This document shows, piece by piece, positions 6,355 through 43,479 of a stretch of DNA of 64,000 nt. Every line of letters begins with the position of its first letter. The first letter of the stretch is position 1. The position numbers were made by a program, and so were the translations under genes. A model generated the notes under the pieces. That model saw only the letters and a list, made by a program, of their open reading frames with translations. It had not been told where the DNA came from and ran no database searches. Origin of the DNA: Arcobacteraceae bacterium. GTDB taxonomy: Bacteria; Campylobacterota; Campylobacteria; Campylobacterales; Arcobacteraceae. The stretch is taken from positions 608,001 through 672,000 of the forward strand of contig OY759974.1 of NCBI GenBank assembly GCA_963662945.1. Reading direction: 5' to 3'.

Positions 6355-6396
6355 TTGACTTACATCAAACTAAAAATATTAATTATAAGATAGGAT
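6355..6396 (+). promoter_or_regulatory. Crp/Fnr (Nss-type) box TTGACTTACATCAA plus -10 TAGGAT; probable autoregulation of the crp/fnr gene
   Basis: Box 6355-6368, 22-nt spacer, TAGGAT 6391-6396. Confidence 0.75.
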
Positions 6397-6402
6397 ATTA
6401 TT

Positions 6403-7065
6403 ATGACAAATATGACAGAAACTATTAAAAAAATTAACCTTTTTGCACATTTAGATGATGAGTCTTTAGAGAAATTAGCTTCGATATCTTACTTGTCAAA
6501 ATTTGATAAAGATGCTATTTTATACTATGAATCAGATTCAATAGATAAAATACTTTTTTTAATCACTGGACTTATAAAAGTGTATAAAATAGACAAATAT
6601 GATAATGAGATATTTTTATATTATATCTACCCAAACAGTATGATATCAGAGTTATCAAATCTCAATCATAATAAAATTAGGTGCTTCTCAAATACGGAAT
6701 TTGTAGAGGACAGTTTAATGCTTTCAATAGATTATAAAAAGTTTAAAGAGTTTTTTTTACTAGATAATGAACTTGCGTTAAAATTTATAGAAGAGATTAT
6801 ATACAAAAACCAACAATTACAATGTATTGTCAACCGCGAATTAGTATTTGATGCTACTTCAAAAGTTGCCTTTATGTTAGTCAATGACTTGGATATGTTT
6901 AATCAACTTAAACGAAATCAAGTAGCTTTAATGTTACATATTCAACCAGAAACCCTCTCCCGAGTTTTAAACAGACTTATGAGAAATAAAACAATAAATA
7001 TAGATAAAGGAAATGTAATCATCGAAAATATCGAAGAGTTACAAAGTATCTATTTAGGAGTATAA
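6403..7065 (+). CDS. Crp/Fnr family transcriptional regulator (Nss/Dnr-like, no Fnr-type Cys cluster)
   Basis: cNMP-like N-terminal domain (LFAHLDDESL...GLIKVYK) and HTH QVALMLHIQPETLSRVL. Confidence 0.92.
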   Translation: MTNMTETIKKINLFAHLDDESLEKLASISYLSKFDKDAILYYESDSIDKILFLITGLIKVYKIDKYDNEIFLYYIYPNSMISELSNLNHNKIRCFSNTEFVEDSLMLSIDYKKFKEFFLLDNELALKFIEEIIYKNQQLQCIVNRELVFDATSKVAFMLVNDLDMFNQLKRNQVALMLHIQPETLSRVLNRLMRNKTINIDKGNVIIENIEELQSIYLGV

Positions 7066-7067
7066 AC

Positions 7068-8057: not shown

Positions 8058-8062
8058 CTAAA

Positions 8063-8506: not shown

Positions 8507-8533
8507 AATATTTTCCTTTGTACTTTTAGCTAC

Positions 8534-8917: not shown

Positions 8918-8927
8918 TATTAACTCC

Positions 8928-12964: not shown

Positions 12965-15781
12965 TTATGCTTGGTAAATTTTTACAGCACACTTTTTAAA
13001 GTCAGTTTGTTTTGACTGTGGACAAGTTGCATCAAGACAAACTTTATTGATAAATACTTTTTCATCAAACCATGGTACGAATACAAGTCCTCGTGAAGGT
13101 CGATTTCTACCTCTAGTTTCAACTCTCGCTTTTACTTTTCCTCTTCTAGATTCTACCCAACAAAGACCACCTTGTTTGAGTCCTTTTGCAGCTGCATCTT
13201 CTGGGTGTATATAACATAAAGCTTCTGGAACAGCTCTATAAAGTTCAGGAACTCTCATTGTCATAGTACCACTATGCCAGTGTTCTAGTACTCTCCCTGT
13301 ACATAACCAAGTATCGTACTCACTATCTGGTATTTCTGGTGGATCCATATATGGTCTTGCAAATATTTTAGCTTTATTTGTTAACGCTTTTTTGTTTTTA
13401 TCTTTTACACCATTTAAGTCACCATAAGGTAATGCTTTGGCTAACTTACCATAAAATGCAAACTCTGTATGTCCCGTCTCTTTTCCATATTTTTTAGCAT
13501 AAGGGTCATATTTTGCATTAAATCTCCATTGAGTCTCTTTTCCATCAACAACTGGCCATTTAAGTCCTCTTACCCTATGATAAGTATCAAAGTCTGCTAA
13601 ATCATGAGCATGTCCTCTACCAAACCATGCGTATTCTTCAAATAAGTACTTTTGGATAAAGAATCCATACCCTTTCCAAGCTTTACCGTCTGATCCTAAA
13701 ACATTTCTACTATCTCCAAAACCTTCAGTATTATCATAGCCTTTTTGGATAGGATCATTTTGATCTAGTTTATAACTTCTAGCTTCATCATTTGCAAAAA
13801 GGATATCAAACATTGTTGTATCTTCATTGTATCCCATTGCCTTTGCTTTTTCAATAATATTTGGTAATGCTTCTTTTCTTGGACCACTTGGTGCATAAGA
13901 ACCCCAAACATCTTTAACAGTAAACCTTTTTGACAATTCAACCCATTGCCAAGTATCAGACATAGCATCACCTACTGGTAAAACTTGTTGTCTCCAATGT
14001 TGTGTTCTTCTTTCCGCATTTCCATATGCTCCCCATTTTTCATAAATCATTGCAGATGGTAAAATAAGGTCACTAACTTTTGCAGAAATACCAGGATATC
14101 CATCAGATGTTACGATAAAATTATCCATCTCACGTGCAGCTTTAATCCAGTGTTTTGCTGATGCTGTATCTTGATAAGGATTACATACATTTACCCAAGC
14201 AAACTTAATAAGTCCATCTTCAATATCTCTATGGATTCTCATTATATCTTGAGTTCCAACAGGATTAATTGTACCCTCTGGTACTTTCCATCTATCTTCA
14301 GTGATTTTTCTATGTTTTGGATTTGCTACCATCATATCAGCAGGCAATCTATGACAGAACGTACCAACCTCTCTAGCAGTTCCACAAGCAGATGGTTGTC
14401 CCGTAAGTGAGAATGCACCACTTCCTGGTTTTGCTTGTTTATTCAATAAGAAGTGAACATTGTACGAAAGTGTATTTACCCATGTACCTCTTGTATGTTG
14501 GTTCATACCCATTGTCCAGAAACTTACAACTTTTCTGTCTTTTTCAATATAATATGAAGCTAATGTTTTAAGTTTTTTCTTAAACTCTTCAATATCTTCA
14601 TCAGGATTTCCTTTAGATATTTTTGCTACATAATCAAGTGTATAAGGAGCAAGAAATTTTTTATACTCTTCAAAAGAAATTTCCCAGTGAGCTAAACCTG
14701 CTGGTTTATTCTCCATTACATCACCCTCTTTATATCCAAAAGGCTCTAATGCTGGTGCTTCAGTAGCTGAAACTACTTTTTTCATCTCTTTTGAAATAGT
14801 CTCCATCTCTTTTGCTGTATATTTTCCATCTTTAAGAGCTTGTTCTCCATCTCTTCTCATACCATACCCTGTATTTACAGGTTGTGAACAGAAAATCATA
14901 TGTTTGTTTACAAAGTCCCAATCAATAGACTCTGGATGATTATACACTATCTCATGTGCGATATAGTTCCAAAGTGCCAAGTCAGTATTTGGTGTAAAAA
15001 TAATCTCGATATCAGCAAGGTCTGAAGTCCTATGTCTATATGTAGAGATATTTACAACTTTTACTCTATCTGGATCAGATAGTTTTCTATCCGTAACCCT
15101 AGACCATAAAATCGGATGCATCTCTGCCATATTTGAACCCCATGATACAACTGTATCAGTAATCTCAATATCATCATAACAACCACTTGGTTCGTCAATA
15201 CCAAAAGTTTGATAAAATCCAACAACCGCAGATGCCATACAGTGTCTTGCATTTGGATCAAAAGCATTTGATCTAAATCCACCTTTCATCATTTTTTGAG
15301 CTGCATATCCTTCCATAACAGTATATTGCCCACTTGCAAATACACCAACACCCTCTGGTCCACTCGCTTTAAGTGCTTTTTTAATGTGAATTTCCATCTC
15401 ATCAAATGCTCTTTTCCAAGATACAGGTGCAAATTTTCCATTTTTATCAAACTCACCTTTTGCATTTACTCTTAAAAGTGGTGTTTTAAGTCTATCAGCC
15501 CCATACATGATTTTTGCATTAAAGTATCCTTTAATACAATTAAGCCCTCTGTTAACAGGTGCAGCTGGGTCACCCTTTACTGCTACTATCTTACCCTCTT
15601 TTGTAGCCATCATAATTCCACAACCTGTACCACAAAATCTACAAGCTGCTTTATCCCAACGCCAACCAGCTTCAGCCGTGTTTGCAGCAGCGCTTAAATT
15701 ACTTGGTACACTCATACCAACAGCAGCAGCAGCTGAAGCAGCAGCTGAACTTTTTAGAAAGTCTCTTCTTGAAAGTGCCAT
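12965..15781 (-). CDS. napA: Periplasmic nitrate reductase catalytic subunit
   Basis: Tat signal [38 protein letters not shown]. Confidence 0.99.
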
Positions 15782-15819: not shown

Positions 15820-15861
15820 AGTTTAACACTATAAATAATTAATTATCTTGACCTTAGTCAA
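15820..15861 (-). promoter_or_regulatory. napA promoter: box TTGACCTTAGTCAA plus -10 TAAACT
   Basis: Box 15848-15861, 22-nt spacer, -10 at 15820-15825 on minus strand. Confidence 0.85.
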
Positions 15862-15959: not shown

Positions 15960-16001
15960 TTGATGTAAGTCATACTTTTTTTGATTTTATTTTTATAGAA
16001 T
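15960..16001 (+). promoter_or_regulatory. Box TTGATGTAAGTCAT plus -10 TAGAAT, upstream of candidate sRNA 1
   Basis: Box 15960-15973, 22-nt spacer, TAGAAT 15996-16001; no ORF downstream. Confidence 0.75.
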
Positions 16002-16006
16002 TTCGT

Positions 16007-16076
16007 AAATTAAAAACCGCTTGTTTTTTACGGACCCTCCTAAAGTCATAAAGTTTCTTTCGGTTTTTAGTTTTTT
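16007..16076 (+). ncRNA. Candidate small RNA, copy 1 (terminal stem, CUCCUAAAGU loop)
   Basis: 13-bp stem 16007-16019/16061-16073 with U tail; homologous to 17529-17618; own promoter. Confidence 0.6.
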
Positions 16077-16165: not shown

Positions 16166-16603
16166 TTAATTAAGTATCCCAGCACCATCAATAGCAGTGC
16201 TTCTATCTTGGGCATACACTCTTTCACCCTTGATAATATCATATTTCCATATAGGAGCACTAGCTTTAAAGTCTTCTACAAACTCATCAATAAGCTCTAG
16301 TGCAACTCTTCTTTTTGGGCTACATACTGCTGCTATATAGGAGCTTGTATGATTTGGAACATCACCTCGACTATGAGCCATCAGTACTATTGCATTTTTC
16401 TCTTTTGCTTTTATCTGCCAAGATTCAAACCAAGAGTTTAAGATAGGCTCATAGATATCAAAACTCAAACCATCAATTCCATCTTCATCTCGAACTACTC
16501 CAACAAAAGTGATAATTGCTCCAAAATTAGAAAGTCTAAAATTGTTATACCACTTGTTTGTTATTTTTTCTACCTCTAAGCTACCATCATATAACTCTAA
16601 CAA
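16166..16603 (-). CDS. moaE: Molybdopterin synthase catalytic subunit
   Basis: FGAIITFVGVVR and FKASAPIWKY. Confidence 0.92.
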   Translation of the reverse strand: MLELYDGSLEVEKITNKWYNNFRLSNFGAIITFVGVVRDEDGIDGLSFDIYEPILNSWFESWQIKAKEKNAIVLMAHSRGDVPNHTSSYIAAVCSPKRRVALELIDEFVEDFKASAPIWKYDIIKGERVYAQDRSTAIDGAGILN

Positions 16604-16636
16604 AATTATTCCTTTTTAAATTTTAATTTTATACCT

Positions 16637-16710
16637 GAGTTTTTTATGCTAAAGCATATAAAAAAACTCCTCCTAAGTTAAAAAAGCAAAGCAGTTTGCT
16701 TTTTCTTAAC
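16637..16710. other. Double-hairpin element between moaD and moaE, related in sequence to the candidate sRNA loops
   Basis: Hairpins 16637-16669 and 16677-16710 joined by CTCCTAA. Confidence 0.6.
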
Positions 16711-16712
16711 AC

Positions 16713-16934
16713 TTATCCGCCACATACAGGAGGAAGTAAAGATACTTTATCTCCATCTTTGAGTATTTTATTTTTATCTTTTACTAAAGTGTCATTTACT
16801 GCAACTGCACTATTGTTTAACCAGCTTTTTAAATTTTCATCTTGTTTTAAAATTTCACTTAATTCATTAAGGTTTTGTATATCAACACTTATTGGTTTTT
16901 TATTGATTGGTCCTAAAAATTCTATTGTTACCAT
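16713..16934 (-). CDS. moaD: Molybdopterin synthase sulfur carrier
   Basis: AVAVND...[16 protein letters not shown] with C-terminal GG. Confidence 0.93.
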
Positions 16935-17422
16935 AATCTATCCTCCTTCTCTCTATTAAAATCTCCAGATTTTCCACCACTTTTATGTTCAAGTTGTAGA
17001 TTTGATATTATCATACCTTTATCTATTGCTTTTACCATATCATAAATAGTAAGTAATCCTATAGATACTCCTGTTAGTGCTTCCATCTCTACACCTGTTT
17101 GTCCTTTAAGTTTTGCTGTAACTGTTAGTTTAAATCCTGGCAACTCATCTAATTGTTCTACATCACAATTAATACCTGTTAGTAGTAGTGGATGGCACAT
17201 AGGAATAAGTTCAGGTGTTTTTTTTGTTCCCATAATTGCTGCAACTACTGCTGTTTGTATTACAGGTCCTTTTTTATTTTGATTTGATATTACATTTTGA
17301 AATGCAACATTGCTCATAGATATAATTCCACTTGCAACAGCAACTCTTGTAGTATCCTCTTTAGAAGAAACATCTACCATTTTGGGTCGATGGTTTTGGT
17401 CTAAATGTGTTAAGTTATTCAT
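16928..17422 (-). CDS. moaC: Cyclic pyranopterin monophosphate synthase
   Basis: [38 protein letters not shown]. Confidence 0.97.
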
Positions 17423-17480: not shown

Positions 17481-17522
17481 TTGATGTAAGTCATAGCATT
17501 GAATATAATTTATTTATATAAT
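17481..17522 (+). promoter_or_regulatory. Box TTGATGTAAGTCAT plus -10 TATAAT, upstream of candidate sRNA 2
   Basis: Box 17481-17494 (identical to 15960 and 40439), 22-nt spacer, TATAAT 17517-17522. Confidence 0.78.
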
Positions 17523-17528: not shown

Positions 17529-17618
17529 AGTAAATTAAAAACCGATTATTGTTCAATATCCTTGTCTCCTAAAGTTAAAGCAAAGAAGTTACAATATTTA
17601 ATTGGTTTTTAATTTCTA
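17529..17618 (+). ncRNA. Candidate small RNA, copy 2
   Basis: 17-bp stem 17532-17548/17599-17615, loop contains CTCCTAAAGT; homologous to 16007-16076. Confidence 0.62.
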
Positions 17619-17624: not shown

Positions 17625-17951
17625 TTATTGGTATTCTATAACAGTATAAAAAATATTATCTTCTAAAAAGCACTCTTTTACTGTATAGCCATCTTTTAAC
17701 TTTAAAAATGGTTTTAAAGAGTTATTTGAAGAGACTACTAAGCGATCATTGTTTTGCAATAATGTTTGTCCAATTTGGATATTGTGTAAGATCTCTTCTC
17801 TTTGAAGATATATTCCCTCAAAACAATAATGTATACCATCTTCTTGTTTTACTTTATAAAAATCTACTGTTGTCTCAGGAAGTATAGATTTATTTGTATC
17901 TTCTACTACTCCGCCACTACATAGACAAGCTCCTGTTCCACAACTTTCCAT
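17625..17951 (-). CDS. Hypothetical protein with Cys-rich N-terminus; distant paralog of 35774..36115
   Basis: MESCGTGACLCSGG; TVDFYK...DG..Y.F shared with the 35774 protein; AAGGA RBS. Confidence 0.7.
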   Translation of the reverse strand: MESCGTGACLCSGGVVEDTNKSILPETTVDFYKVKQEDGIHYCFEGIYLQREEILHNIQIGQTLLQNNDRLVVSSNNSLKPFLKLKDGYTVKECFLEDNIFYTVIEYQ

Positions 17952-17980: not shown

Positions 17981-18022
17981 ATTTTAGCTTTTTTAGTATG
18001 ATTTTAAATTGACCCATATCAA
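17981..18022 (-). promoter_or_regulatory. Box TTGACCCATATCAA plus -10 TAAAAT
   Basis: Box 18009-18022, 22-nt spacer, -10 17981-17986 on minus strand. Confidence 0.85.
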
Positions 18023-18035: not shown

Positions 18036-18374
18036 CTATTTTGATTCATAAAGATAAGTTGCAATTTTTTCTAAAGTATCTTTGTCGTACCCAAGCTCTG
18101 GCATAATCTCATATTTTTCTATCATATCCTGCATAATTGAGCCTTCATGAAAAGGTTTATAAACCCAATTCACCATATAATTTACAAACTCTTTTTTCTC
18201 TCCAAAAGCTTCGTGGTATCTCTGTTTTATCATTTTTAAAGAGGGTGCTGAGATATTTTTTGTTTCATGATGACAAGTGATACAGTTACCATACAAAAGT
18301 AATCTTCCATAGGAATCTGCATAACCCAAGCTTGTACTGAATAGTAGTATTAAAACTAAATGTATTGTTTTCAT
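18036..18374 (-). CDS. Monoheme c-type cytochrome
   Basis: Signal peptide, CITCH, distal MP motif. Confidence 0.85.
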   Translation of the reverse strand: MKTIHLVLILLFSTSLGYADSYGRLLLYGNCITCHHETKNISAPSLKMIKQRYHEAFGEKKEFVNYMVNWVYKPFHEGSIMQDMIEKYEIMPELGYDKDTLEKIATYLYESK

Positions 18375-18409: not shown

Positions 18410-18479
18410 ATAATATCTTAAATATAATTATTTGTAATTGACATATATCAAAAAAAAATCCATTTTTTTTCTATAAAAT
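18410..18479. promoter_or_regulatory. Bidirectional promoter with one central box TTGACATATATCAA
   Basis: Box 18438-18451; TAAAAT 18474-18479 (+) and TATTAT 18410-18415 (-), each 22 nt away. Confidence 0.8.
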
Positions 18480-19127: not shown

Positions 19128-19169
19128 TTGACAAAGGTCAAAGATTTAAATTTTAATTTAGTATAAAAT
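19128..19169 (+). promoter_or_regulatory. Box TTGACAAAGGTCAA plus -10 TAAAAT
   Basis: Box 19128-19141, 22-nt spacer, TAAAAT 19164-19169. Confidence 0.87.
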
Positions 19170-19195: not shown

Positions 19196-19489
19196 ATGAA
19201 AAAAATAATTTCAATTGGTTTATTATTAGGGTTTGCTTCAACTATGGCATTAGCAGATGGAGCAACAGTATATAAAAAATGTGTTGCATGTCATGGGGCA
19301 AATGGGGAAAAAGTTGCTTTGGGAAAAAGCAAAATTATCAAAGATATGACAAAGGCTGATATAGAAAGCTCACTTTTAGGATATAAAAATGGAACATACG
19401 GTGGTGCTATGAAAGGTCTTATGGCTGGACAAGTAAAATCATTAAGTGTTGCTGATATTAAAGATATTGCAAATTTAATAGGAAAATAA
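19196..19489 (+). CDS. Cytochrome c553-like monoheme cytochrome
   Basis: Signal peptide, CVACHGANG, YGGAMKGLM. Confidence 0.92.
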   Translation: MKKIISIGLLLGFASTMALADGATVYKKCVACHGANGEKVALGKSKIIKDMTKADIESSLLGYKNGTYGGAMKGLMAGQVKSLSVADIKDIANLIGK

Positions 19490-24204: not shown

Positions 24205-24623
24205 ACTTTCATCTCCTCTTGTCTCATTTTCTTATATAGAATTTCATATTTTTCCACCTCTTTTCTTGAAGCTCTTCTTCTACAAGAGATATATCCCCTA
24301 CCTCCGTTTGATGAAGTAAAAGGAAAAACTGTAGCAAATACCCAATAATATTTTCCATCCTTTGTTTTGTTTTTCACAAAACCTCTCCACCTCTTGTTAC
24401 TTTGTACCGCTTTCCACAAATCTTCAAAAGCTGCTTTTGGCATATCTGGATGTCGCACAATATTATGAGGCTTGCCGATAAGTTCTTCAAGGCTATACCC
24501 AGCAAAATGGCAAAACTCATCATTTGCAAATAAAATAATCCCTCTTTCATCTGTCTCTGATACTAGAAAAGATTTATCATCTAAAATTAATTCATTACCT
24601 TGAATATCCATAATAAACTCCAT
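24201..24623 (-). CDS. Stand-alone Aer/CetB-like PAS protein (start may be ATG at 24611)
   Basis: LVSETDERG...ANDEF...[13 protein letters not shown]...YYWV; ATGA overlap with the MCP gene. Confidence 0.88.
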
Positions 24624-24639: not shown

Positions 24640-24681
24640 AGGTTATCATATTTGAAGAGATTTTTTTTTGATATAAGTCAA
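24640..24681 (-). promoter_or_regulatory. Box TTGATATAAGTCAA plus extended -10 TGA-TAACCT
   Basis: Box 24668-24681, 22-nt spacer, -10 24640-24645 on minus strand. Confidence 0.82.
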
Positions 24682-25548: not shown

Positions 25549-25576
25549 AGTGAAAGTTTATAGGAAGTTTTATTAA

Positions 25577-25643
25577 ATACTACTTTAAAGTAGAATTAAA
25601 AATAAATAAGCTATAGTTTCATATACTACTTTAAAGTAGAATT
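25577..25643. promoter_or_regulatory. Two identical 21-bp operators ATACTACTTTAAAGTAGAATT (core palindrome CTACTTTAAAGTAG)
   Basis: Copies at 25577-25597 and 25623-25643 flanking -10 TATAGT (25612-25617). Confidence 0.85.
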
Positions 25644-25660
25644 TATAAAAGGGGTTATTT

Positions 25661-30530: not shown

Positions 30531-31022
30531 TTATATAAGAAACCTTTTATCAGACCTTGCATAACTTACCTCTTCATAAGACTTTTTCATCCAACCTGAT
30601 TTTGAGGGAGTAATTATTTTATCAAAATTTTCAATATAAGGCTTAATATCAAGTAGCGGTGTACCGTTAAGTACATCAATCCCTTTTACGATTACGATAT
30701 TTTGCTTCACAGTTAGAAGTTCGACAATTGAAAGTCCAATACTATTTGGATGCATAGGAGTTCTTGTAGCAAATACTCCTCTTTTTGTATTTGTATGGTC
30801 GTTAAAAGGAATCACCTCAAGTTCATAGTCTTGAACTTTATGAAAATAGTACATAAGGTACACATGAGAAAAACCATCCAAATCTTTTAGTCCCTTTTCA
30901 TACTCTTTTTTAAAGACAATTTTTCCTATAGATGCATCAGCCCCACAAGGTTGCACAGGCATATTTTCCAAAAATTCAAAAGGGGTATGTATTGTAGCTA
31001 AACTATTCAGTTGAAATTTCAT
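30531..31022 (-). CDS. tsaA: TsaA/TrmO-like SAM-binding protein
   Basis: GLKDLDGFSH, RGVFATRTPMHPNSIGLS, GIDVLNGTPLLDIKPY. Confidence 0.88.
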   Translation of the reverse strand: MKFQLNSLATIHTPFEFLENMPVQPCGADASIGKIVFKKEYEKGLKDLDGFSHVYLMYYFHKVQDYELEVIPFNDHTNTKRGVFATRTPMHPNSIGLSIVELLTVKQNIVIVKGIDVLNGTPLLDIKPYIENFDKIITPSKSGWMKKSYEEVSYARSDKRFLI

Positions 31023-31037
31023 AGTACAAGCTTCACT

Positions 31038-32213
31038 TTATCCATCAATTCGTAAAATAGTTTTACCGTATCGGATACTCCAACCAAGAAATAAAACAAT
31101 CCATAAAATGATACTTAAATGGAAAAAACCCATAAAAAAGTTATACTCACTTAAATATAAAAGAGACCCCAATATTCGTGAAACAATAACAACTTGCAAT
31201 AGTACAAAAAGAGCTATTGTAAATTTATCTGCAACTATTTTTTGTGCAGGTACAGCATGACCCATAATAACACGACTACCAAAACCAATCAAAAGATTAA
31301 GAACAAACCCCAAAGCAAAAATATGTAAAGAAAGCTTCATAGTATAAATTTCTAATACAGCTTCTAAAAAATAAACCACAACGCCTAAATAGAACCAAAA
31401 AAATGAAACTACTAAAATAGAGATAATTGCAGGGGTTTTGCTGTAAATATTAAGATTAAATATTATGTATCCAAAAAATCCAAGAGCTATGAGTGCTATA
31501 ACTTTTGAAAAAAATATCAACTCAAACTGCAATACTATCCCTATAAAAAAAAGTAAAATTAAAGAAAACTCTAAAGTAAACTTTGGTTTTTGCCACTTTG
31601 GTTTTTGGGTATAAAGAGCGTAAAAATTAGGTACCATTTTTAAAGCGACTAAAAAAACTGTACTTAAAAGGTACCCATAAAATATCAAAATAGATAAATC
31701 TTTTTTAAAAGCAATCTCACATATAAGTATCCATGAAGCTACAAAAAGTAATAAAGTTAAAAGATAACTCTCTTTTTTATCTATACTGTATCCCTTTAAG
31801 ATTATATTATGAAATAAGATTACAGTAAGCAAAAGAGTCGTAACAGTTATTAATTTACCTAAAAAAACAAAATCAAATAATACTAAAATGACTCCTATTT
31901 GATACAAGACCCATAAGGGTAAGTATCTTTGTTTTCGTATCACTTGAGATGTAGAATATTTAGGAATAACTGTAATTAAAAATCCCAAAAAGGCATTGGT
32001 AAATACTCCAAACAACAATCCAAAACTATGCAAGATAGAAAAATTGACCTCTTTACCTATAAAACTTAAAAAAGTTCCTATCATCGTATAAAAAGCAAAA
32101 AAAAGTGTAGAGGCAAAAAAAAGTTGATGGGGTTGATCGCTAAATCGTTCAAACCAACTTTTTTTCACTAAAGGTTGAGAACTAAACTGTGAAAATTGCA
32201 TAATAAGCTCCAT
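31038..32213 (-). CDS. nnrS: NnrS family membrane protein (start may be ATG at 32201)
   Basis: QPHQLFF, GFLITVIPKY, LHIFALG, SRVIMGH. Confidence 0.85.
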   Translation of the reverse strand: MELIMQFSQFSSQPLVKKSWFERFSDQPHQLFFASTLFFAFYTMIGTFLSFIGKEVNFSILHSFGLLFGVFTNAFLGFLITVIPKYSTSQVIRKQRYLPLWVLYQIGVILVLFDFVFLGKLITVTTLLLTVILFHNIILKGYSIDKKESYLLTLLLFVASWILICEIAFKKDLSILIFYGYLLSTVFLVALKMVPNFYALYTQKPKWQKPKFTLEFSLILLFFIGIVLQFELIFFSKVIALIALGFFGYIIFNLNIYSKTPAIISILVVSFFWFYLGVVVYFLEAVLEIYTMKLSLHIFALGFVLNLLIGFGSRVIMGHAVPAQKIVADKFTIALFVLLQVVIVSRILGSLLYLSEYNFFMGFFHLSIILWIVLFLGWSIRYGKTILRIDG

Positions 32214-32232: not shown

Positions 32233-32274
32233 ATTCTATCTTATTTGAAAATATTTTAAATTGACTTGGGTCAA
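32233..32274 (-). promoter_or_regulatory. Box TTGACTTGGGTCAA plus -10 TAGAAT (nnrS)
   Basis: Box 32261-32274, 22-nt spacer, -10 32233-32238 on minus strand. Confidence 0.87.
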
Positions 32275-32299: not shown

Positions 32300-33484
32300 T
32301 TAAAATAGTAAAAATGGCTCTTGTAAATAAAACCCTTGAAGATAATCGATTCTTAACTCTTGGCATATTTTACAAATTGGTTCATTATGAACATATTCCG
32401 CTACACAGGAAGCTTGAAGCTCTTTTGCCATAGAGATGATGTTTTTTACAAGTATCTTTGAATCACTACTTGTATCAAGATTTTTGATAAGAGTTCCGTC
32501 TATTTTGATGATTTCAGGCTTGAGTTTGAGGATATTTTCCATACTTGAAAACCCGCTTCCAAAATCATCTATTGCTATTTTTGCTCCATACTTTCTCATC
32601 CAAGCTGCAAAGTTTTCTACAATAGAAAAGTCATCAATAAACTCACTTTCAACTATCTCAAAAATCACTCTATTTGGTTTTGGAAAGTTTTCCATCAACT
32701 CGTCTAAAAGTTTTATAACTTTTGGATTTGAAAGGTCTTCATAATCAAGATTGATACTAAATTCATAAGCGTTGTTTCTCATCAAATCAAATACTTTTTT
32801 GATCATAATAACGGTAAGTTTTTCGTATATTTTGATATCTTTTGCGGTTTTTAAATAAGGAAAAATTGAAAAATACTGATTGGTCTGTTTTTTATAGAGT
32901 CTCATAAGCGACTCATATTTTGAGATTTGAAGAGTTTTTGTATCAAATATAGGCTGAAAAAACGGTACTACATTATCATTTGCGACACAATCTCGAATAA
33001 AGACGATATCTTCAAGAAGTTTTGCTTGTTCGTTTTTTGAATAAGTAACGGTCAAGATATCAAGATTGATATCAATTATCTTATCAACTGAACTTAAAAA
33101 CTCTAGCTTATTTTCTCGTATCAAAACATCTTTTAAAAATCTTCTTACATAGCTAAAAGCAGCATTGACATAGTGATGGGGAAGCCCTATTTTTACATGC
33201 ACTTCACTGATGGTATTGAGTTTTTCAAAATATTTGTCGTCATATTTTCCGCTAAAAAGATTTAAGTACCACTTCCCTATTTCACTTTTGTGTTTATCAT
33301 GTACGGCATCGCTATTGATAAATTTTTTGGCATATTCAAAGTTGAAAATAAAACGATAAAATCCATCTAAAAACTCTTTTGAGTAGTTTGAAAAAAGTTC
33401 TGAAACTTTTTCAAGATTGAAAATATCTTCATTTGTAAAATCGTAATTTTGTACTATTTTCTTATAGTGGGTGTTGTTTGTCAT
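32300..33484 (-). CDS. Globin-coupled (protoglobin-like) EAL phosphodiesterase
   Basis: ISEVHVKIGLPHHYV globin segment; ESLMR, DDFGSGFSS, IKIDG, VAEYV. Confidence 0.85.
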   Translation of the reverse strand: MTNNTHYKKIVQNYDFTNEDIFNLEKVSELFSNYSKEFLDGFYRFIFNFEYAKKFINSDAVHDKHKSEIGKWYLNLFSGKYDDKYFEKLNTISEVHVKIGLPHHYVNAAFSYVRRFLKDVLIRENKLEFLSSVDKIIDINLDILTVTYSKNEQAKLLEDIVFIRDCVANDNVVPFFQPIFDTKTLQISKYESLMRLYKKQTNQYFSIFPYLKTAKDIKIYEKLTVIMIKKVFDLMRNNAYEFSINLDYEDLSNPKVIKLLDELMENFPKPNRVIFEIVESEFIDDFSIVENFAAWMRKYGAKIAIDDFGSGFSSMENILKLKPEIIKIDGTLIKNLDTSSDSKILVKNIISMAKELQASCVAEYVHNEPICKICQELRIDYLQGFYLQEPFLLF

Positions 33485-33968
33485 TTTTTATCCCTAAAGT
33501 TATTTTTTCCATACTAAAAGCTACAACATACAAAATCAAAGCACCGCTTAACACAGGGGATAAAAGATAAAAAAATCCTAATTGATGAATCTGTTCGCTT
33601 CCAACTACTGCAATCAACGCCGTTGCACCTCCTGGTGGATGCAATGTGTCGGTACTTTGCATAAGTAAGATTGCAAAAGAAACCGCAAAAGCACTGCAAA
33701 GTACAATGTCAAAAGATAGAAGCTTAAAAGAAATCACCCCTGCAAAGCCACTTAAGAGATGCCCAAAAATCAAATTTTTTCCTTTTGAAAGAGGGGAATG
33801 AGTTGCAGCATAAAGCAACACGGCACTTGCCCCAAAGGAGCCTATCATCAGAACCAAATCTTTGTCGTTTAAAAAGTTTTGATGAAAATAAGCGACTGTT
33901 ACAATGCCTAAAAAAGAGCTAATAAATGAAAAAATCAAAACTACACTCCGTAAATAAAAATCCACCAT
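33462..33968 (-). CDS. HPP family membrane protein
   Basis: IGSFGASAVLLY...SPLS, LHPPGGATAL. Confidence 0.93.
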   Translation of the reverse strand: MVDFYLRSVVLIFSFISSFLGIVTVAYFHQNFLNDKDLVLMIGSFGASAVLLYAATHSPLSKGKNLIFGHLLSGFAGVISFKLLSFDIVLCSAFAVSFAILLMQSTDTLHPPGGATALIAVVGSEQIHQLGFFYLLSPVLSGALILYVVAFSMEKITLGIKNDKQHPL

Positions 33969-34013
33969 AAATTAATACTGAAAAAATATGCAATAGTTTT
34001 ATAGTAATAAATA

Positions 34014-34220
34014 TCATTTTTTACCTATACTTATAATTATCGGATTTTTATAAGACTCAAACCAATCTTTTAATATTAATACAATTGATATAAATGCCAA
34101 AACATCAATAATAATATTTGACTCTAATTGGAGAGAAAAATAATGAATTACAAAATAGACAACAATAGGATATTTGATAAAATAAAAAAAGATTATCAAA
34201 CTCCCGTATAATTTTTTCAA
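34014..34220 (-). CDS. Small hypothetical membrane protein
   Basis: 68-aa hydrophobic ORF tightly packed in the operon. Confidence 0.5.
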   Translation of the reverse strand: MKKLYGSLIIFFYFIKYPIVVYFVIHYFSLQLESNIIIDVLAFISIVLILKDWFESYKNPIIISIGKK

Positions 34221-34222
34221 TT

Positions 34223-34528
34223 TTAAAATCCTCCAAGTTTAGCTTTTACTTCATCTGTAGCCATAGTGATATTCCAAGCAGGTTCCCACACTAAGTTCAC
34301 ACTTGCTTTTTCTACTTTTGGTAACTCCCTCAAAACCGCTTCTTCCACCCACTGGATAATCATCTGATGCAATGGACATGCTTTGGTACTTAATGTCATA
34401 GTGACTACCACTTCCATATTTTCACCACAAACTGCATCATAAATAAGCCCCATCTCTACTAGATTGAATCCCACTTCTGGGTCATTGACTGTTGAGACGG
34501 CTTTGAAAATCTCTTCTTTGCTATACAT
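34223..34528 (-). CDS. SufT/PaaD-like (DUF59) metal-sulfur cluster assembly factor
   Basis: VNDPEVGFNLVEMGLIY, MTLSTKACP, VWEPAW. Confidence 0.92.
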   Translation of the reverse strand: MYSKEEIFKAVSTVNDPEVGFNLVEMGLIYDAVCGENMEVVVTMTLSTKACPLHQMIIQWVEEAVLRELPKVEKASVNLVWEPAWNITMATDEVKAKLGGF

Positions 34529-34531
34529 AAT

Positions 34532-35764
34532 TTATCCCTTAAAATTTATCATAAAAACTATATCTTTGACTAAAAAAATAGTCCCAATAACCAAAAAACT
34601 CACTCCACTGAAAAATAGAGTTTGCATTTGTAATAAAAGGGCTACCCCAACTATACTAAAACCAACTGTACTAAATAAAAACTGCATATTTGCACTTCTT
34701 ACAGGTACCATATCGGCTAACATCGGTACTTTTCTCTTCCCAACATAAGGGGAAAATCTCTCATACCACACTAAAAAAGGGATGATTTTATACAAATGTC
34801 CACTTATCATAAAACTAATAAATCCAAATCCAAACCATCCAAGTGTCAAAAGTAAACTTTGTGAACTATTGTATAAATGCATTCCAGCTAACACAATAGT
34901 TATAACAAAAAATACAAAAGATGCCACAATACTTTTAAAATAGATATCTTTTTCACTTCGCACTTTTGTTTTATGTATGATAGCTATTTGCAATCCATAC
35001 AAAAGTATTGCTAAAAGTGTAGCGATATATCCTAGCTGTTGTATCTCTTGAACATTTATCAATGCTCCAACTCCTACACACACTACACCACAAGATAAGA
35101 TACCTAAAGAGAGTTTTACCCATTTCCACGAGAAAGAGTGACTGAGCCAAAACATAGGTAAAAGCACTAAACTCATCCCCATGATACTGATCCCAACATA
35201 CCCAACAAATACAAAATAGATATGGGTGGTTAAAAATCTATTCAAATCAACCACTACCATTCCACTATACCCAAGTGCTAAGATAATACCTACAACCAAT
35301 CCTAAGAGTAAAAAAAAATTTGCAATGATGACCGATAGTGTGACAAAACTCAGTTGTTTGAGTTTGAGTAAAGTTAAAAAAGTCTCTACTAAAAATATCC
35401 CAAAAGAGATAAATGCTACCACTCCACCAAATGGAAGAACTATAGGATACTTTACAAATCCCACTACCATCAAAATAGTCCCTAGCAAAAGAAGAGGATA
35501 AATCGCATAATAAAGCTCCACTGCAAAATGCTCCACTTCAAAAACCACAGGAACTAGTTGAGCCATCGCACCAAATATCACCATCATCACAAACCCTAAC
35601 AAAAATAGATGTACCCATGAAAGCACTTTGCTATCAAGAGTGGTAAGTGTTTGGATATCAAACCAAAAAAGAGTTATGATAGAGACTACAAAAACAAAAA
35701 CCCCTATAATAAAAAAAGGGGCTATAAGTTTAAAAGGTGGGGCGAAATTGGTAGAGATTTTCAT
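34532..35764 (-). CDS. Multi-pass membrane protein with TM His residues
   Basis: About 12 TM segments; WVHLFLLGF...GAMAQLVP, HIYFVFVG, GHLYKIIPF. Confidence 0.75.
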   Translation of the reverse strand: MKISTNFAPPFKLIAPFFIIGVFVFVVSIITLFWFDIQTLTTLDSKVLSWVHLFLLGFVMMVIFGAMAQLVPVVFEVEHFAVELYYAIYPLLLLGTILMVVGFVKYPIVLPFGGVVAFISFGIFLVETFLTLLKLKQLSFVTLSVIIANFFLLLGLVVGIILALGYSGMVVVDLNRFLTTHIYFVFVGYVGISIMGMSLVLLPMFWLSHSFSWKWVKLSLGILSCGVVCVGVGALINVQEIQQLGYIATLLAILLYGLQIAIIHKTKVRSEKDIYFKSIVASFVFFVITIVLAGMHLYNSSQSLLLTLGWFGFGFISFMISGHLYKIIPFLVWYERFSPYVGKRKVPMLADMVPVRSANMQFLFSTVGFSIVGVALLLQMQTLFFSGVSFLVIGTIFLVKDIVFMINFKG

Positions 35765-35773
35765 CTTTAAGCC

Positions 35774-36115
35774 TTAGTGAGTACACTTTCCACCACTGCA
35801 ACTATTTTGAGAAAAATCTGTTATATTTTTACCATCTTGTTTTTTGGTAAAAGTGATTTTTGCTTTTCCATCTTCTGTAGTTTCTTCTACAAAATCAAAA
35901 TCAGCTTCAATCTTTGGGAATAATCCCCCTGGAGATTTGTGATTGATCATCACAAGGCAAGAGTTCTCATCTAGTAGTTGAAGTCCTGCCATTGCGTTTA
36001 CCATAGGATGTGGTGGTTCACACGAACTTGTATCAAAAAAGTAGATTGTCAAACCATCTTGCACCTCTTTAAAAAAATCTACTGTTGCCCCTAATGCTTC
36101 TATTTTTTCCATCAT
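35774..36115 (-). CDS. TusA/DUF2249-like small protein with Cys-rich tail
   Basis: FDTSSCEPPHPMVNAM...MINHKSPGGL; C-terminal SCSGGKCTH. Confidence 0.72.
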   Translation of the reverse strand: MMEKIEALGATVDFFKEVQDGLTIYFFDTSSCEPPHPMVNAMAGLQLLDENSCLVMINHKSPGGLFPKIEADFDFVEETTEDGKAKITFTKKQDGKNITDFSQNSCSGGKCTH

Positions 36116-36142: not shown

Positions 36143-36212
36143 AGTATAACGATTTTGAGAGGTATTATCATTGACTTATATCAACAAATATTTTATAAAA
36201 TTTGCTTACAAT
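36143..36212. promoter_or_regulatory. Bidirectional promoter with one central box TTGACTTATATCAA
   Basis: Box 36171-36184; TATACT 36143-36148 (-) and TACAAT 36207-36212 (+), each 22 nt away. Confidence 0.87.
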
Positions 36213-36238: not shown

Positions 36239-36904
36239 TTGATGAATCCATATATTTATTCATTGCAAATAGGAAAAGTGCAAAAGCTTGATGGTTGGGA
36301 AACAGGGTCTTTTAAAGATGAAGTTGAAGAGATAGAAGTTTTTAATAATGGAATCAAAAATGATGAAGTATCCGATACAAAAAATCATGGTGGAACTCAA
36401 AAAGCAGTGTTTGCTAATAGTTTACATAACTATCCACAGTGGCAAGAATTTCTAGGTCTTTTTTCACTTCCAAAAGGCTCATTAGGTGAAAATTTGACTA
36501 TTTCAGGACTTAATGAAACCAACGTATATTTAGGAGATATTCATAAAATTGGTGAAGTGATTCTTCAAGTAGTACAACCTAGAAAACCTTGCTGGAAAAT
36601 ATCAAAAAAACACAAAAATAACAATTTTACAAAATTTATTTATGATACTGGCCGTACGGGATGGTATTATAGTGTTTTAGAAGCTGGACAAATATCCAAA
36701 GGAGATAAAATACAAGTTTCTCATAACAATGGGGAAAAAATCTCTATCATGGAAGCTAATCAGGCTTTTAAAAATTTTAAAACAAGTCAAACAACTCTTA
36801 AAAGAATACTAGAGATTCCAAATATTAGTGAAGATTATAAAAAAAGTATCCAAAAACGACTTGAAGATAGGTATGATTTAGGGTTTATGCAGTTGCCTCA
36901 ATAA
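36239..36904 (+). CDS. MOSC domain protein (YiiM-like)
   Basis: NHGGTQKAV, GENLTISG, QPRKPCWK, TGRTGWYYSVL. Confidence 0.93.
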   Translation: MMNPYIYSLQIGKVQKLDGWETGSFKDEVEEIEVFNNGIKNDEVSDTKNHGGTQKAVFANSLHNYPQWQEFLGLFSLPKGSLGENLTISGLNETNVYLGDIHKIGEVILQVVQPRKPCWKISKKHKNNNFTKFIYDTGRTGWYYSVLEAGQISKGDKIQVSHNNGEKISIMEANQAFKNFKTSQTTLKRILEIPNISEDYKKSIQKRLEDRYDLGFMQLPQ

Positions 36905-40365: not shown

Positions 40366-40407
40366 ATTCTATGATATTTAACTCTGTATTACATTGACTT
40401 AGGTCAA
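40366..40407 (-). promoter_or_regulatory. moaA promoter: box TTGACTTAGGTCAA plus -10 TAGAAT
   Basis: Box 40394-40407, 22-nt spacer, -10 40366-40371 on minus strand. Confidence 0.87.
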
Positions 40408-40438: not shown

Positions 40439-40480
40439 TTGATGTAAGTCATATGTTTAATCTCTATTTCGATGTACAAT
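40439..40480 (+). promoter_or_regulatory. nrdD promoter: box TTGATGTAAGTCAT plus -10 TACAAT
   Basis: Box 40439-40452, 22-nt spacer, TACAAT 40475-40480. Confidence 0.83.
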
Positions 40481-40506
40481 TTTACAAATTACCATAAAGG
40501 GATAAT

Positions 40507-42606
40507 ATGAAATACATCATTAAAAGAGACGGTTCAAAAGAGATATTTCAAGACTATAAAATAGAAGATGCTATTAAAAAAGCTTTTAAAAGTGTCAATA
40601 TATCTTATAACAGAACTATCTTCACTAAAGTTATAGATACTACTGTGGAAAAAAACATTAAAACAGTTGAAGAGATTCAAGACTTAATAGAAAAAACACT
40701 TTTTCAGTATCAATATTTTGATGTAATGAAATCATTTATTACTTATAGGTTTTTACATAAAATGCAACGTGAACATATCTTAGGCCTTGATAAAGATACA
40801 ACTTTTGTCAACTCAAGTGCAAGTGTAGAGGAATATATACATAAAAATGACTGGAGAATAAAAGCAAATGCAAATACTGGCTACTCAAACTCAGGACTAG
40901 TAAATAATCTTGCAGGAAAAGTGATAGCAAACTATTGGCTAGACAAAGTTTATACAAAAGAGGAAGGTTATGCTCATAGAAATGGTGATATTCATATCCA
41001 TGATTTAGATTGTTTAACTGGATATTGTGCTGGTTGGAGTTTAAGACAACTTTTAAATGAAGGGTTTAATGGAGTTCGTGGAAGAGTTGAAAGTGATGCG
41101 CCAAAACATTTTCGTGAAGCTTTGGGACAGATGGCAAACTTTTTGGGAATACTTCAAAGTGAGTGGGCAGGTGCTCAAGCTTTTAGTTCTTTTGATACCT
41201 ATCTTGCTCCTTATATTTTTATGGATGATTTAAGTTATACAGAGATAAAAAAAGCTGTAAGAAGTTTTGTTTACAACCTCAATGTTCCCTCACGTTGGGG
41301 ACAATCTCCTTTTACAAATATCACAATAGACTGGACTGTACCAGATGATTTAAAAGATCAAATACCTACACGATATGATTTCCATCTTTTTAAAAATATC
41401 AATTCTCTTTCTTTAATAGAAAAAGCACATCAAAGAGGAATAAAAAATCTTGAAGATTTAACCTATAAAGATTTTAAACCAGAAATGAATCTAATCAATA
41501 AAGCATACTATGAGATTATGACAGAAGGTGACAAAACAGGACAACCATTTACTTTTCCGATTCCAACAGTAAATATCACTGAAGATTTTGACTGGTATGG
41601 GGAAAACGTCGACATACTCCTAGAAAATAGTGCAAAAATTGGCTCAAGTTATTTTCAAAACTTTATAGGAAGTCAATATATTGTAGATGAAAATGGAGTT
41701 AAAATAGAGAACCTGGAAGCATATAAACCGAATGCTGTACGAAGTATGTGTTGTAGATTGCAACTAGATTTAAGAGAACTTCTAAAAAGAGGAAATGGTC
41801 TGTTTGGCTCAGCTGAAATGACAGGAAGTATTGGAGTTGTTACTCTTAATATGGCAAGAGTTGGGTATCTCTATAAAAATAATAGAATAGAGTTTTTCCA
41901 ACAACTTGAAAGACTTTTAAATATAGCCTATGAAACTTTAGAGAAAAAAAGAGTTGTGATAAATAAACTCTTTTTAGATGGCTTATATCCTTATTCAAAA
42001 CGATATTTAAAAGGATTTAACAATCATTTTTCAACTATAGGAATTAATGGTCTTAATGAAATGATACGAAACTATAGTGATGATACAGATGATATAACTA
42101 CAGATTTTGGAGAAGAATTCTCTTTAGAAATTTTAGATTTTATACGGGGAAAAATCAAATCATTTCAAGAAAAAAGTGGCAACCTCTATAATCTTGAAGC
42201 AACTCCAGCGGAAGGGACAACTTATAGATTTGCAAAAGAGGATAAAAAAAGATATCCAGATATTTTACAAGCAGGATTTGAAGATAAAATATATTATACA
42301 AACTCTTCACAACTCCCAGTTGATTTTACACAAGATCCATTTGAGGCACTTTTAAAACAAGATAAATTTCAAACCAAATATACAGGAGGTACAGTATTGC
42401 ATCTATATATGAATGAAAGATTACATAGCGTTGATTCTACACGAGAGTTTTTAAAAACTGTAATGGAGAATTTTAGATTACCTTATATCACATTAACACC
42501 AATATTTTCAGTATGTCAAAAACATGGATATATCAATGGAGAGCATGAATATTGTCCAAAATGTGACGATGAGATATTACAAAACCACACAAAGGAAGCT
42601 TCATGA
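40507..42606 (+). CDS. nrdD: Anaerobic (class III) ribonucleoside-triphosphate reductase, large part lacking the glycyl-radical loop
   Basis: ATP cone (IIKRDGS), IHIHDL, SMCCRL, NLEATPAEG, ends after CQKHG...CPKC. Confidence 0.95.
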   Translation: MKYIIKRDGSKEIFQDYKIEDAIKKAFKSVNISYNRTIFTKVIDTTVEKNIKTVEEIQDLIEKTLFQYQYFDVMKSFITYRFLHKMQREHILGLDKDTTFVNSSASVEEYIHKNDWRIKANANTGYSNSGLVNNLAGKVIANYWLDKVYTKEEGYAHRNGDIHIHDLDCLTGYCAGWSLRQLLNEGFNGVRGRVESDAPKHFREALGQMANFLGILQSEWAGAQAFSSFDTYLAPYIFMDDLSYTEIKKAVRSFVYNLNVPSRWGQSPFTNITIDWTVPDDLKDQIPTRYDFHLFKNINSLSLIEKAHQRGIKNLEDLTYKDFKPEMNLINKAYYEIMTEGDKTGQPFTFPIPTVNITEDFDWYGENVDILLENSAKIGSSYFQNFIGSQYIVDENGVKIENLEAYKPNAVRSMCCRLQLDLRELLKRGNGLFGSAEMTGSIGVVTLNMARVGYLYKNNRIEFFQQLERLLNIAYETLEKKRVVINKLFLDGLYPYSKRYLKGFNNHFSTIGINGLNEMIRNYSDDTDDITTDFGEEFSLEILDFIRGKIKSFQEKSGNLYNLEATPAEGTTYRFAKEDKKRYPDILQAGFEDKIYYTNSSQLPVDFTQDPFEALLKQDKFQTKYTGGTVLHLYMNERLHSVDSTREFLKTVMENFRLPYITLTPIFSVCQKHGYINGEHEYCPKCDDEILQNHTKEAS

Positions 42607-42767
42607 ATGATAAAAAAATTTTAGAACAAAACAAAGAAAAAAGAACAAAATGTACTGTTTATACAAGAGTTATGGGCTATCATAGACCAGTTGAAAGTTT
42701 TAATGTAGGAAAATATGCAGAGCATAGAGAAAGAAAATATTTTGTGGAAAACAAAGAAAATATTTAA
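42603..42767 (+). CDS. Separate NrdD glycyl-radical domain, 54 aa (absent from ORF track)
   Basis: MNDKKILEQNKEKRTKCTVYTRVMGYHRPVESFNVGKYAEHRERKYFVENKENI; ATGA overlap with nrdD stop; AAGGAAG RBS. Confidence 0.9.
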   Translation: MNDKKILEQNKEKRTKCTVYTRVMGYHRPVESFNVGKYAEHRERKYFVENKENI

Positions 42768-43461
42768 CTCTCTTACACCTTTTACACTTTTAGACTTTAA
42801 CTCATATCCATCTGCTATACTTTGGTTTAGTGGTTGTAATATGAGATGTCCATTTTGTTACAATAAAGATATTGTAGAAAATAGAGGAGAATACTCTTTT
42901 AAAGACTTCAGAACATTTTTAAACATACGACAATCTCTTCTTCAAGGGATTGTTTTATGTGGTGGAGAGCCTACAATTCATCCAGAAATTATAGAGATTG
43001 CAAAAGCATTAAAACAGCTAAACTATAAAATCAAACTCGATACAAATGGACTTAATCCAACTGTAATCAAAAAACTAATAGAAGATAATCTTGTTGATTT
43101 TATAGCACTTGACTTTAAAGCACCAAAATCAAAATTTGCTCAAATCACGAAAACTACAGAAAGTCTTTTTCAAAACTTTCTAGATACTTTAGTACTACTT
43201 ATTAGAAGTAATCAAGATTTTGAGGTGCGAACAACTTTTCATGATACTCTTTTAACTACAAATGATATCTATGAGATTTTAAATATATTAGAAAAATACA
43301 ATTACTATAAAACCTACTACATCCAAAACTTTATGAATAGTACTCAAACAATAGGTAATATAACAAATAAAAATCGTATAAATCTTTCCAAAATTATAGA
43401 TGGTTCACTGTACAACTTTAAGATAGAATATAGAAACTTTGATTTAGGTCAAGGTAATTAA
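42715..43461 (+). CDS. nrdG: Class III RNR activating radical SAM enzyme (start uncertain)
   Basis: GCNMRCPFCYN, GGEPTI, KLDTNG, FEVRTT. Confidence 0.92.
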   Translation: MQSIEKENILWKTKKIFNSLTPFTLLDFNSYPSAILWFSGCNMRCPFCYNKDIVENRGEYSFKDFRTFLNIRQSLLQGIVLCGGEPTIHPEIIEIAKALKQLNYKIKLDTNGLNPTVIKKLIEDNLVDFIALDFKAPKSKFAQITKTTESLFQNFLDTLVLLIRSNQDFEVRTTFHDTLLTTNDIYEILNILEKYNYYKTYYIQNFMNSTQTIGNITNKNRINLSKIIDGSLYNFKIEYRNFDLGQGN

Positions 43462-43479
43462 TCTCAATTAAGATACACT
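43439..43479 (+). promoter_or_regulatory. moeA promoter: box TTGATTTAGGTCAA (inside nrdG 3' end) plus -10 TACACT
   Basis: Box 43439-43452, 21-nt spacer, TACACT 43474-43479. Confidence 0.72.

Follow-up and report, generated by a model that had tools for sequence, protein, structure and literature searches.

The subject of this study is a set of 14-nt boxes of the Nss type (TTGA-N6-TCAA) in a 64,000-nt stretch of the genome of an Arcobacteraceae bacterium, together with two small RNAs (sRNAs) that are predicted to be transcribed from two of the boxed promoters. The whole stretch is termed the window below, and corresponds to C1:608001-672000 of a 2.50-Mb genome with 29% G+C; positions are those of the window unless they are called genome positions. 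The named close homologues of the window proteins belonged to Arcobacteraceae. Searches with profile hidden Markov models (HMMs) identified napAGHBF..D, moaA/C/D/E, moeA, nrdDG and nnrS, norCBDQ- and norEF-like genes, a gene encoding an Rrf2 protein, and those encoding a NIT chemoreceptor and PAS, GGDEF/EAL, globin-EAL, HPP, SufT-like and MOSC proteins. As no match to nirS, nrfA, nirK or nosZ was found anywhere in the genome searched, the role of the cluster, judged from its gene content, is nitrate-to-nitrite respiration and the handling of nitric oxide (NO), not full denitrification.

Features of the locus

The boxes, the promoters they belong to and the genes or predicted RNAs behind them are arranged as follows (SD, Shine-Dalgarno).

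6355..6396, plus strand: box with TAGGAT hexamer, upstream of the Crp/Fnr gene; same layout in the genomes G013, G009 and G006
6403..7065, plus strand: Crp/Fnr-family regulator with a cNMP-binding domain (PF00027), HTH_Crp_2 (PF13545) and a PETLSR helix
7068..8057, plus strand: membrane protein that has a PilJ/NarX-type sensor domain but lacks a kinase domain; candidate nitrate input
15820..15861, minus strand: box 15848 and -10 hexamer driving napAGHBF..LD (12965-15781 and downstream)
15960..16001, plus strand: TCAT-ending box and -10 hexamer of predicted sRNA-a
16007..16075, plus strand: predicted sRNA-a, a hairpin of ~68 nt (z -2.4) that includes a closing stem; anti-SD seed at 16036-16046
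17481..17522, plus strand: box identical to that at 15960, with the -10 hexamer of predicted sRNA-b
17529..17617, plus strand: predicted sRNA-b, a hairpin of ~88 nt with the seed CTCCTAAAG at 17566-17574 in the apical loop (z -4.1)
17981..18022, minus strand: box 18009 and -10 hexamer before a 108-aa gene without a Pfam match (17625-17951); may read into moaC-moaD
18410..18479, both strands: bidirectional box 18438; minus, 112-aa c-type cytochrome (18036-18374); plus, 203-aa unknown gene
19128..19169, plus strand: box and -10 hexamer before a small c-type cytochrome (19196-19489)
24640..24681, minus strand: box 24668 and -10 hexamer before a PAS protein and a NIT-domain chemoreceptor (21976-24623)
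32233..32274, minus strand: box 32261 and -10 hexamer before nnrS-trmO (30531-32213)
36143..36212, both strands: bidirectional box 36171; plus, MOSC gene (36239-36904); minus, gene run 32300-36115
40366..40407, minus strand: box 40394 and -10 hexamer before moaA
40439..40480, plus strand: box and -10 hexamer before nrdD-nrdG (40507-43461)
43439..43479, plus strand: box within the nrdG 3' end, spacer of 21 nt, upstream of moeA (43505-44722)

The minus-strand run behind box 36171 comprised DUF2249-like, 410-aa membrane protein, SufT-like, 68-aa, HPP and globin-EAL genes.

Boxes, spacing and enrichment

All of the 13 boxes listed in the original prediction were present at the coordinates claimed. 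The exact TTGA-N6-TCAA sequence was found in 10 of the 13, and the remaining three ended in TCAT. Our recount also agreed with its claim that 14 pairs of box and -10 have exactly 22 nt to a TANNNT hexamer (6355+, 15848-, 15960+, 17481+, 18009-, 18438+, 18438-, 19128+, 24668-, 32261-, 36171+, 36171-, 40394- and 40439+), and that the pair at 43439+ has 21 nt. Across the genome, a degenerate version of the box matched 115 times, and 20 of the matches had TANNNT at 22 nt, 12 of them in the window. The interval 6355-43479 contained 15 matches, where the other 100 matches in the genome would predict 1.5. Within this interval TANNNT lay at 22 nt on 14 of 30 box sides, as opposed to 8 of 200 outside it, and any other spacing from 15 to 30 nt accounted for 0-6 of the 30 sides. 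With an intergenic TANNNT frequency of 0.057, the probability of at least 14 in 26 sides is 2e-11. The 12 window sites among the 20 with the 22-nt spacing were found within a 37-kb stretch, while the largest cluster among 20000 random placements was 6. Note that the pattern and the spacing were taken from the window itself, so that these probabilities are post hoc, and that the relatives described below serve as the independent test. Altogether, the motif and its spacing are concentrated in the interval and not equally frequent elsewhere, and this enrichment rules out a chance origin of the boxes. The flanks were largely free of box-plus-spacer pairs as had been claimed, except that a box at 60778, within a coding sequence of the glycan region, has a 21-nt pair. 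Just past the window, a high-scoring box was also found at C1:674496, at the 3' end of a coding sequence that is followed by a glycan-region gene; no -10 was found for it at 20-24 nt.

Placing the hexamer at -12..-7 puts the box at -48..-35, centred at -41.5. The class II geometry asserted beforehand is thus supported by the distance to the -10 hexamer, and it matches published distances of 48-49 nt. In Nitrosophilus labii, the start of the box is 49, 48 and 48 nt from the predicted start sites of napA, norE and nosB, respectively, and the site consensus is TTGA-N6-TCAA (PMC11539149). Both the site and the geometry had therefore already been published, and the kind of regulon is a known one, namely Nss/Dnr-type class II. 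Two start codons, those of the regulator gene (6403) and of the 203-aa gene (18486), fall exactly on the predicted +1, and the latter has no SD sequence.

Conservation of the boxed promoters in relatives

For the conservation of the promoters, the corresponding regions were fetched from seven relatives. The gene order is shuffled among them, yet the pair of box and hexamer with the 22-nt spacing still precedes the orthologues. A direct box with this spacing was found before napA (4/4), the small cytochrome c or c553 (6/6), moaA (5/5), the 108-aa gene (5/5), the DUF2249-like gene (5/5), the MOSC gene (3/3), nnrS (3/3), nrdD (2/2) and moeA (2/2; the moeA spacer is 22 nt there). The 112-aa cytochrome gene has a direct box in three of six relatives and the 203-aa gene in none of three; they otherwise stand second behind a boxed gene. 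The PAS/NIT chemoreceptor pair lies behind another boxed gene in G020 and has a direct box in G001. Neither norE nor norC was preceded by a box in the two relatives inspected. Most of the boxes are thus conserved before orthologues, and the direct membership originally proposed for nap, nrdD, nnrS, cytochromes and taxis genes (here the PAS/NIT chemoreceptor pair) holds for sites of the Nss type, as it does for the MOSC gene and three unknown genes. As for moa/moe, moaA and moeA are directly boxed, and moaC, moaD and moaE are not.

The notion that the regulon is complete in the window was not borne out, as four more sites in promoter positions were found elsewhere in the genome. They precede an operon ending in a second Crp/Fnr gene (genome 446222), a Rieske/cytochrome b/c1 operon (1701149), a hemerythrin-like operon (2108055) and a TonB receptor/ABC operon (2147115), these labels being read from sequence and not from HMMs. 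Eight relatives also have the bc1 site, and seven have the hemerythrin-like one. The other four of the eight sites outside the window (439816, 1284472, 1887519 and 2457835) are inside coding sequences and were treated as chance matches.

No direct Nss box was found for the nor genes inside the cluster. Instead, the divergent promoter of norE and norC (25549-25660) carries two copies of the palindrome CTACTTTAAAGTAG, at 25580 and 25626. This palindrome has no other exact copies in the genome and is kept beside the Rrf2 gene in G009 and G006. We consider CTACTTTAAAGTAG a probable operator for Rrf2, one that differs from the published NsrR consensus, and the NO reductase genes appear, from this arrangement, to be under the neighbouring Rrf2 protein rather than Nss regulators.

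Two gene-less promoters and their predicted sRNAs

The proposal that two of the promoters serve sRNAs is plausible: the boxes at 15960 and 17481 are identical and no open reading frame (ORF) follows them. The predicted sRNA-a and sRNA-b have in common the 5' stem arm, the CTCCTAAAG seed and a complementary 3' arm, albeit the seed of sRNA-a is only about half unpaired in the structural ensemble. Both hairpins have a promoter of their own for an anaerobic regulator and no coding frame, and show a conserved structure with an exposed seed. No Hfq was found in the genome. Searches against Rfam, which included the family models of FnrS and RoxS, gave no match for the hairpins at the gathering score or at E<=5, and thus no known riboswitch, including the molybdenum cofactor type, is supported. 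We also rejected small ORFs on the minus strand, as the start codon after an SD-like motif is not consistent across the homologues. A literature search found no account of such an sRNA in Arcobacter, with the reservation that an unnamed entry is possible among the Arcobacter sp. L rows of the supplements to PMC6429828, of which a part was covered. Regarding the promoter sequence, that of nrdD (40439-40495) has the same 14-nt box as both sRNA promoters and a similar first transcribed stretch, which suggests a copied promoter.

The sRNA promoter and 5' stem were found in 8 of the 28 genomes of the genus (control, 0), with a box that always ends in TCAT and with differing neighbours. A covariance model, built from six of the sequences in question, found the same eight genomes only. 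At the family level, a box with the 22-nt spacing and hexamer followed by CTCCT was found in 58 of 167 genomes, versus 9 in the control. Gene-less hairpins with a CTCCT loop amounted to 46 of the 167 genomes in seven genera. This count consists of 45 genomes plus G013, which was taken from the searches with promoter plus 5' arm and with the covariance model, not from the CTCCT search. Before arriving at 46, we dropped six hits that fell in a single conserved 317-aa coding sequence (four of them were checked and the other two judged by match text), four hits in other coding sequences and four unclear cases (G522, G186, G003 and the second site of G013). The search at the order level recovered 16 of 36 family genomes and 9 of 265 others. 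One of the latter nine, G342, belongs to a different family of the order and looks similar, as its Nss-box promoter leads into a long hairpin that has CCTCCT in the loop. Two further searches were set aside, namely a collection-wide scan with a loose sRNA pattern, which gave chance matches in unrelated phyla only and was unused, and an order-level pattern of the 5' stem only, which matched mostly ordinary mRNA leaders. In genus g24, the sRNA is directly followed by another hairpin, with TCCT in its loop, which is perhaps a tandem sibling.

The stems are entirely different between genera. Within genus g18, 9 of 13 stem pairs show a compensatory change, which none of 500 shuffles reproduced. Three points weigh against the sRNA proposal. 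First, covariation in the alignment of g1 and g19 is limited to 3 of 13 stem pairs. Second, homology at the sequence level can be recognized for g1, g19 and one g30 RNA only, the others (g18, g24, g28 and g31) having a common architecture. Third, the hairpin could be a leader, as it precedes a regulon gene on the same strand in 12 of 13 g18 genomes and in G009, G006, G463 and G467. Taking the promoters, structures and distribution together, we regard the two window hairpins as likely to be real sRNAs.

The ccoN leader as a predicted target

In the leader of ccoN (TIGR00780; genome 1070616-1070648), 11 nt spanning the SD sequence are perfectly complementary to the sRNA-a seed, and there is a second block of complementarity. 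For sRNA-a and sRNA-b, ccoN ranked 4th and 3rd of 2417 leaders, and 3rd and 2nd of 261 leaders with a strong SD, respectively. When the seed was fixed and the rest shuffled, the pairing with ccoN outside the seed remained better than that of the shuffles for both RNAs (P = 0.010 for sRNA-a and 0.030 for sRNA-b); six near-identical RNAs were excluded from this test. For the RNAs of relatives, the background leaders in the rankings were those of the genome containing the window. The G015-type RNA ranked ccoN first with a 14-nt perfect second block, and the g19 and g28 RNAs ranked it 1-6 of 261, their loops fitting the ccoN leader of their own genus best or nearly best. In a comparison of cognate with non-cognate genera, the result corresponded to 174 of 5040 permutations. 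The 5' leader of ccoN itself is strongly conserved across the family and begins with a small hairpin.

Several results speak against ccoN as the target. Most of the permutation signal is due to two blocks of genera, and related genomes do not count as independent. The RNAs of G013, G009, G043 and G006, which represent four of the seven sRNA types of the genus, pair with ccoN no better than shuffled sequences (ranks 74-326 of 2417), and the same is true of all nine g18 RNAs. Among 30 other sRNAs, P<=0.05 for ccoN was obtained with only 6. Covariation with the target is hard to test within the genus, since the ccoN leader is nearly invariant there. We thus put the chance that ccoN is a direct, repressed target at about even, judging from predicted pairing.

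The main alternative here is that the hairpins are broad anti-SD sRNAs, of which the main targets are other mRNAs, and that ccoN scores highly by virtue of an unusually strong ribosome site. The RNA types just listed, with no ccoN pairing beyond the seed, are what such an alternative would lead us to expect, as are other leaders that score equal to ccoN in the combined ranking. On the other hand, it does not account for the pairing outside the seed in the window RNAs, for the second block of the G015-type RNA or for the genus-specific fit of the g19 and g28 loops. We hold this alternative as possible but rather doubtful.

In three genomes of the genus in which no sRNA was detected (G018, G001 and G022), only 7 nt separate a perfect TTGA-N6-TCAA box from the -10 of ccoN downstream of it, which puts the box in a repressor-like position. 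Three more, G004, G008 and G042, have a box with one mismatch there. None of the eight sRNA genomes has a box there. This distribution hints that the box at the ccoN promoter may achieve the same repression by another route, a comparison confounded by kinship.

Which protein binds the boxes

The protein encoded at 6403 has the effector domain and the C-terminal helix-turn-helix (HTH) with an E..SR recognition helix that characterize regulators of the Nss/Dnr type, and the boxes have the TTGA-N6-TCAA sequence of such regulons. The protein has two Cys residues (94 and 141) and lacks the N-terminal Cys cluster of FNR, and does not qualify as an O2-sensing 4Fe-4S protein of that type. The nearest solved relative was DNR (PDB 3dkw; E 7e-6), and the PETLSR motif aligns to the QPET.SR helix of DNR. 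Neither Wolinella NssA/B/C nor C. jejuni NssR appeared in the list of 120 homologue matches, and it is the position beside nap that suggests an NssA-like label for this protein. The gene for the PilJ/NarX-type sensor follows the regulator gene in all of the ten relatives inspected.

A paralogous Crp/Fnr gene (genome 443930-444565), the product of which is 31% identical to the 6403 protein and carries the same PETLSR helix, is the last gene of the operon behind the box at genome 446222. In G013, G009 and G006, the operon of the paralog and the 6403 orthologue have one bidirectional box in common. The complete genome of G008 encodes a single Crp/Fnr HTH protein (31% identical to the 6403 protein and 38% to the paralog) without an adjacent sensor gene. 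This genome has no 6403 orthologue and retains the box with the 22-nt spacing before napA, the small cytochrome (c553), hemerythrin-like and TonB-receptor genes. Thus, the box does not name its protein, and the split of labour between the paralogs is not readable from the boxes.

It had been claimed that the 6403 protein alone activates every site, its own gene included. The clustering of 12 of the 20 sites beside the gene would fit this claim, and so would the orthologues of at least 70% identity in all seven comparable sRNA genomes of the genus (the eighth, G043, was not compared) and the ATG of the gene at the predicted +1. The paralog with the same helix in a boxed operon, the bidirectional box that it shares with 6403 orthologues and the boxed promoters of G008 all argue in the opposite direction, and Wolinella uses three Nss proteins (PMC11539149). 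We therefore do not uphold the assignment of all sites to 6403, and regard sole control by this protein as unlikely. As for self-activation, a box and a hexamer are present and the predicted +1 is the A of the ATG, which would make the transcript leaderless. The case is ambiguous, because TAGGAT at 6391 doubles as a well-spaced SD sequence, and only three of seven orthologues have a direct box. By contrast, activation of the sites by one or both of the Nss-type proteins is, from the geometry and conservation described above, very likely.

Other features of the window and its surroundings

The moaC, moaD and moaE genes at 16166-17422 are second copies; the other copies, at genome 1229116, 1168345 and 1168523, resemble the genes of relatives more closely. 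Between moaD and moaE (16625-16715), two strong hairpins (z -4.1) flank CTCCTCCTAAG, a third anti-SD-like motif that has no Nss box. The 606-nt intergenic region from secA to the regulator gene (5797-6402) contains no ORF of at least 60 aa. Within it, at 6290-6355, a decayed promoter and the SD and ATG of a lost divergent gene persist upstream of the box at 6355. The cluster seems to have been relocated from between the paralog operon and clpX-like genes, splitting the bidirectional box (genome 445567-446610). The RNase P RNA gene (RF00010) was found at 50906-51235.

Discussion

We regard it as fairly probable, on the comparative evidence, that the cluster is a class II regulon of the Nss/Dnr type to which two hairpin sRNAs blocking the cbb3 oxidase mRNA have been added. 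Crp/Fnr dimers, probably of both the 6403 protein and the paralog at genome 443930, would sit on the boxes at -41.5 and activate transcription, the box taking the place of the -35 element, which is absent from Campylobacterota sigma-70 promoters as described for C. jejuni (PMC3847290). The genes so activated would be those for nitrate reductase, its molybdenum cofactor, electron carriers, the anaerobic ribonucleotide reductase and the response to nitrosative stress. Nitrate may reach the 6403 protein through the adjacent PilJ/NarX-type membrane protein, and NO may be the input to the paralog. The gene-less promoters would yield the hairpin sRNAs, the loops of which would block the ribosome site of ccoN, repressing ccoNOQP independently of Hfq. 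Such repression would divert the electrons of the bc1 complex and the small cytochrome c away from oxygen.

A different origin of the hairpins can be conceived, in which they are leftovers, either promoters with leader or terminator hairpins stranded when a gene was lost, or terminators that serve two converging genes. In some relatives, nnrS or another regulon gene follows this promoter and hairpin, and the stems are rich in A/T with U runs at their ends, as leftovers might be. However, the loop retains its CTCCT even where the stem has been replaced or covaries, many genomes have the element by itself ahead of a convergent gene, and it was duplicated here together with its promoter, with neighbours that vary by genus. 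We consequently find leftovers quite improbable. That the boxes are repressor operators over ordinary promoters, or chance matches in AT-rich DNA, is highly improbable: a nap-linked Crp/Fnr protein is suggested to negatively regulate nosZ (PMC11539149) and a box overlaps the ccoN promoter in some relatives, but one conserved 22-nt spacing on both strands before nitrate/NO-induced genes is what activation predicts, and chance is excluded as above.

The regulon resembles those of Wolinella succinogenes (NssA/B/C) and N. labii (two Crp/Fnr proteins) in the TTGA-N6-TCAA site at 48-49 nt from the start site, in the regulator gene beside nap and in several paralogs with one common site (PMC11539149). 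In contrast to N. labii, this genome has no nirS, nirK, nrfA or nosZ match, and nor is unboxed while norE is boxed there. The regulon described here adds moa/moe, nrdD, bc1, taxis and cyclic di-GMP genes as well as sRNAs, none of them mentioned in the part of PMC11539149 used. C. jejuni NssR, in the same order, is likewise a positive regulator of the Crp family for nitrosative-stress genes (PMC4601167, PMC8139620). Its regulon is a small one around globins, with no sites before nap or nrf, whereas nap is a core member here. The DNR regulon of Pseudomonas and beta-proteobacteria (PMC1274295) shares the palindrome resembling an FNR box, nnrS as a member and the QPET.SR helix, but the sequence match of the 6403 protein is distant and nor is unboxed here.

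As regards the sRNA layer, the predicted RNAs would work like FnrS of E. coli and RoxS of Bacillus, which are driven by an anaerobic or NO regulator and repress functions unneeded without oxygen (PMC8139620), and are not members of those families. They differ in having no sequence or Rfam match, in consisting of one long hairpin with the anti-SD loop at its apex, in a host without Hfq and in the predicted cbb3 target. CJnc230/FlmE of C. jejuni (PMC11187230) is also a Campylobacterota sRNA with an exposed anti-SD motif, but is RpoN-dependent, processed from the flgE transcript, composed of two stem-loops and directed to flagellar targets. We tentatively suggest, with somewhat more doubt than confidence, a family-wide class of Nss-activated, Hfq-independent hairpin sRNAs that would silence cbb3 through an anti-SD loop as the Campylobacterota counterpart of FnrS. 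They would form a respiratory switch that is retained from genus to genus and duplicated in the present genome, an Nss operator on ccoN replacing them in some lineages without the RNA.

What is known of nitrate and NO regulation in Campylobacterota comes from very few species. The strict rule of box, 22-nt spacer and TANNNT provides a directly testable regulon map, and ties conserved unknowns (the 108-aa gene, the DUF2249-like gene, the 410-aa membrane protein and the 112-aa cytochrome) to nitrate or NO physiology. The noncoding RNAs of Campylobacterota are mostly species-specific (PMC3847290). If our proposal is true, an sRNA architecture in seven genera under one regulator, and with a respiratory target that is plausible, would be an exception to this tendency, and would add a post-transcriptional layer to the switch between oxygen and nitrate in a lineage without Hfq.

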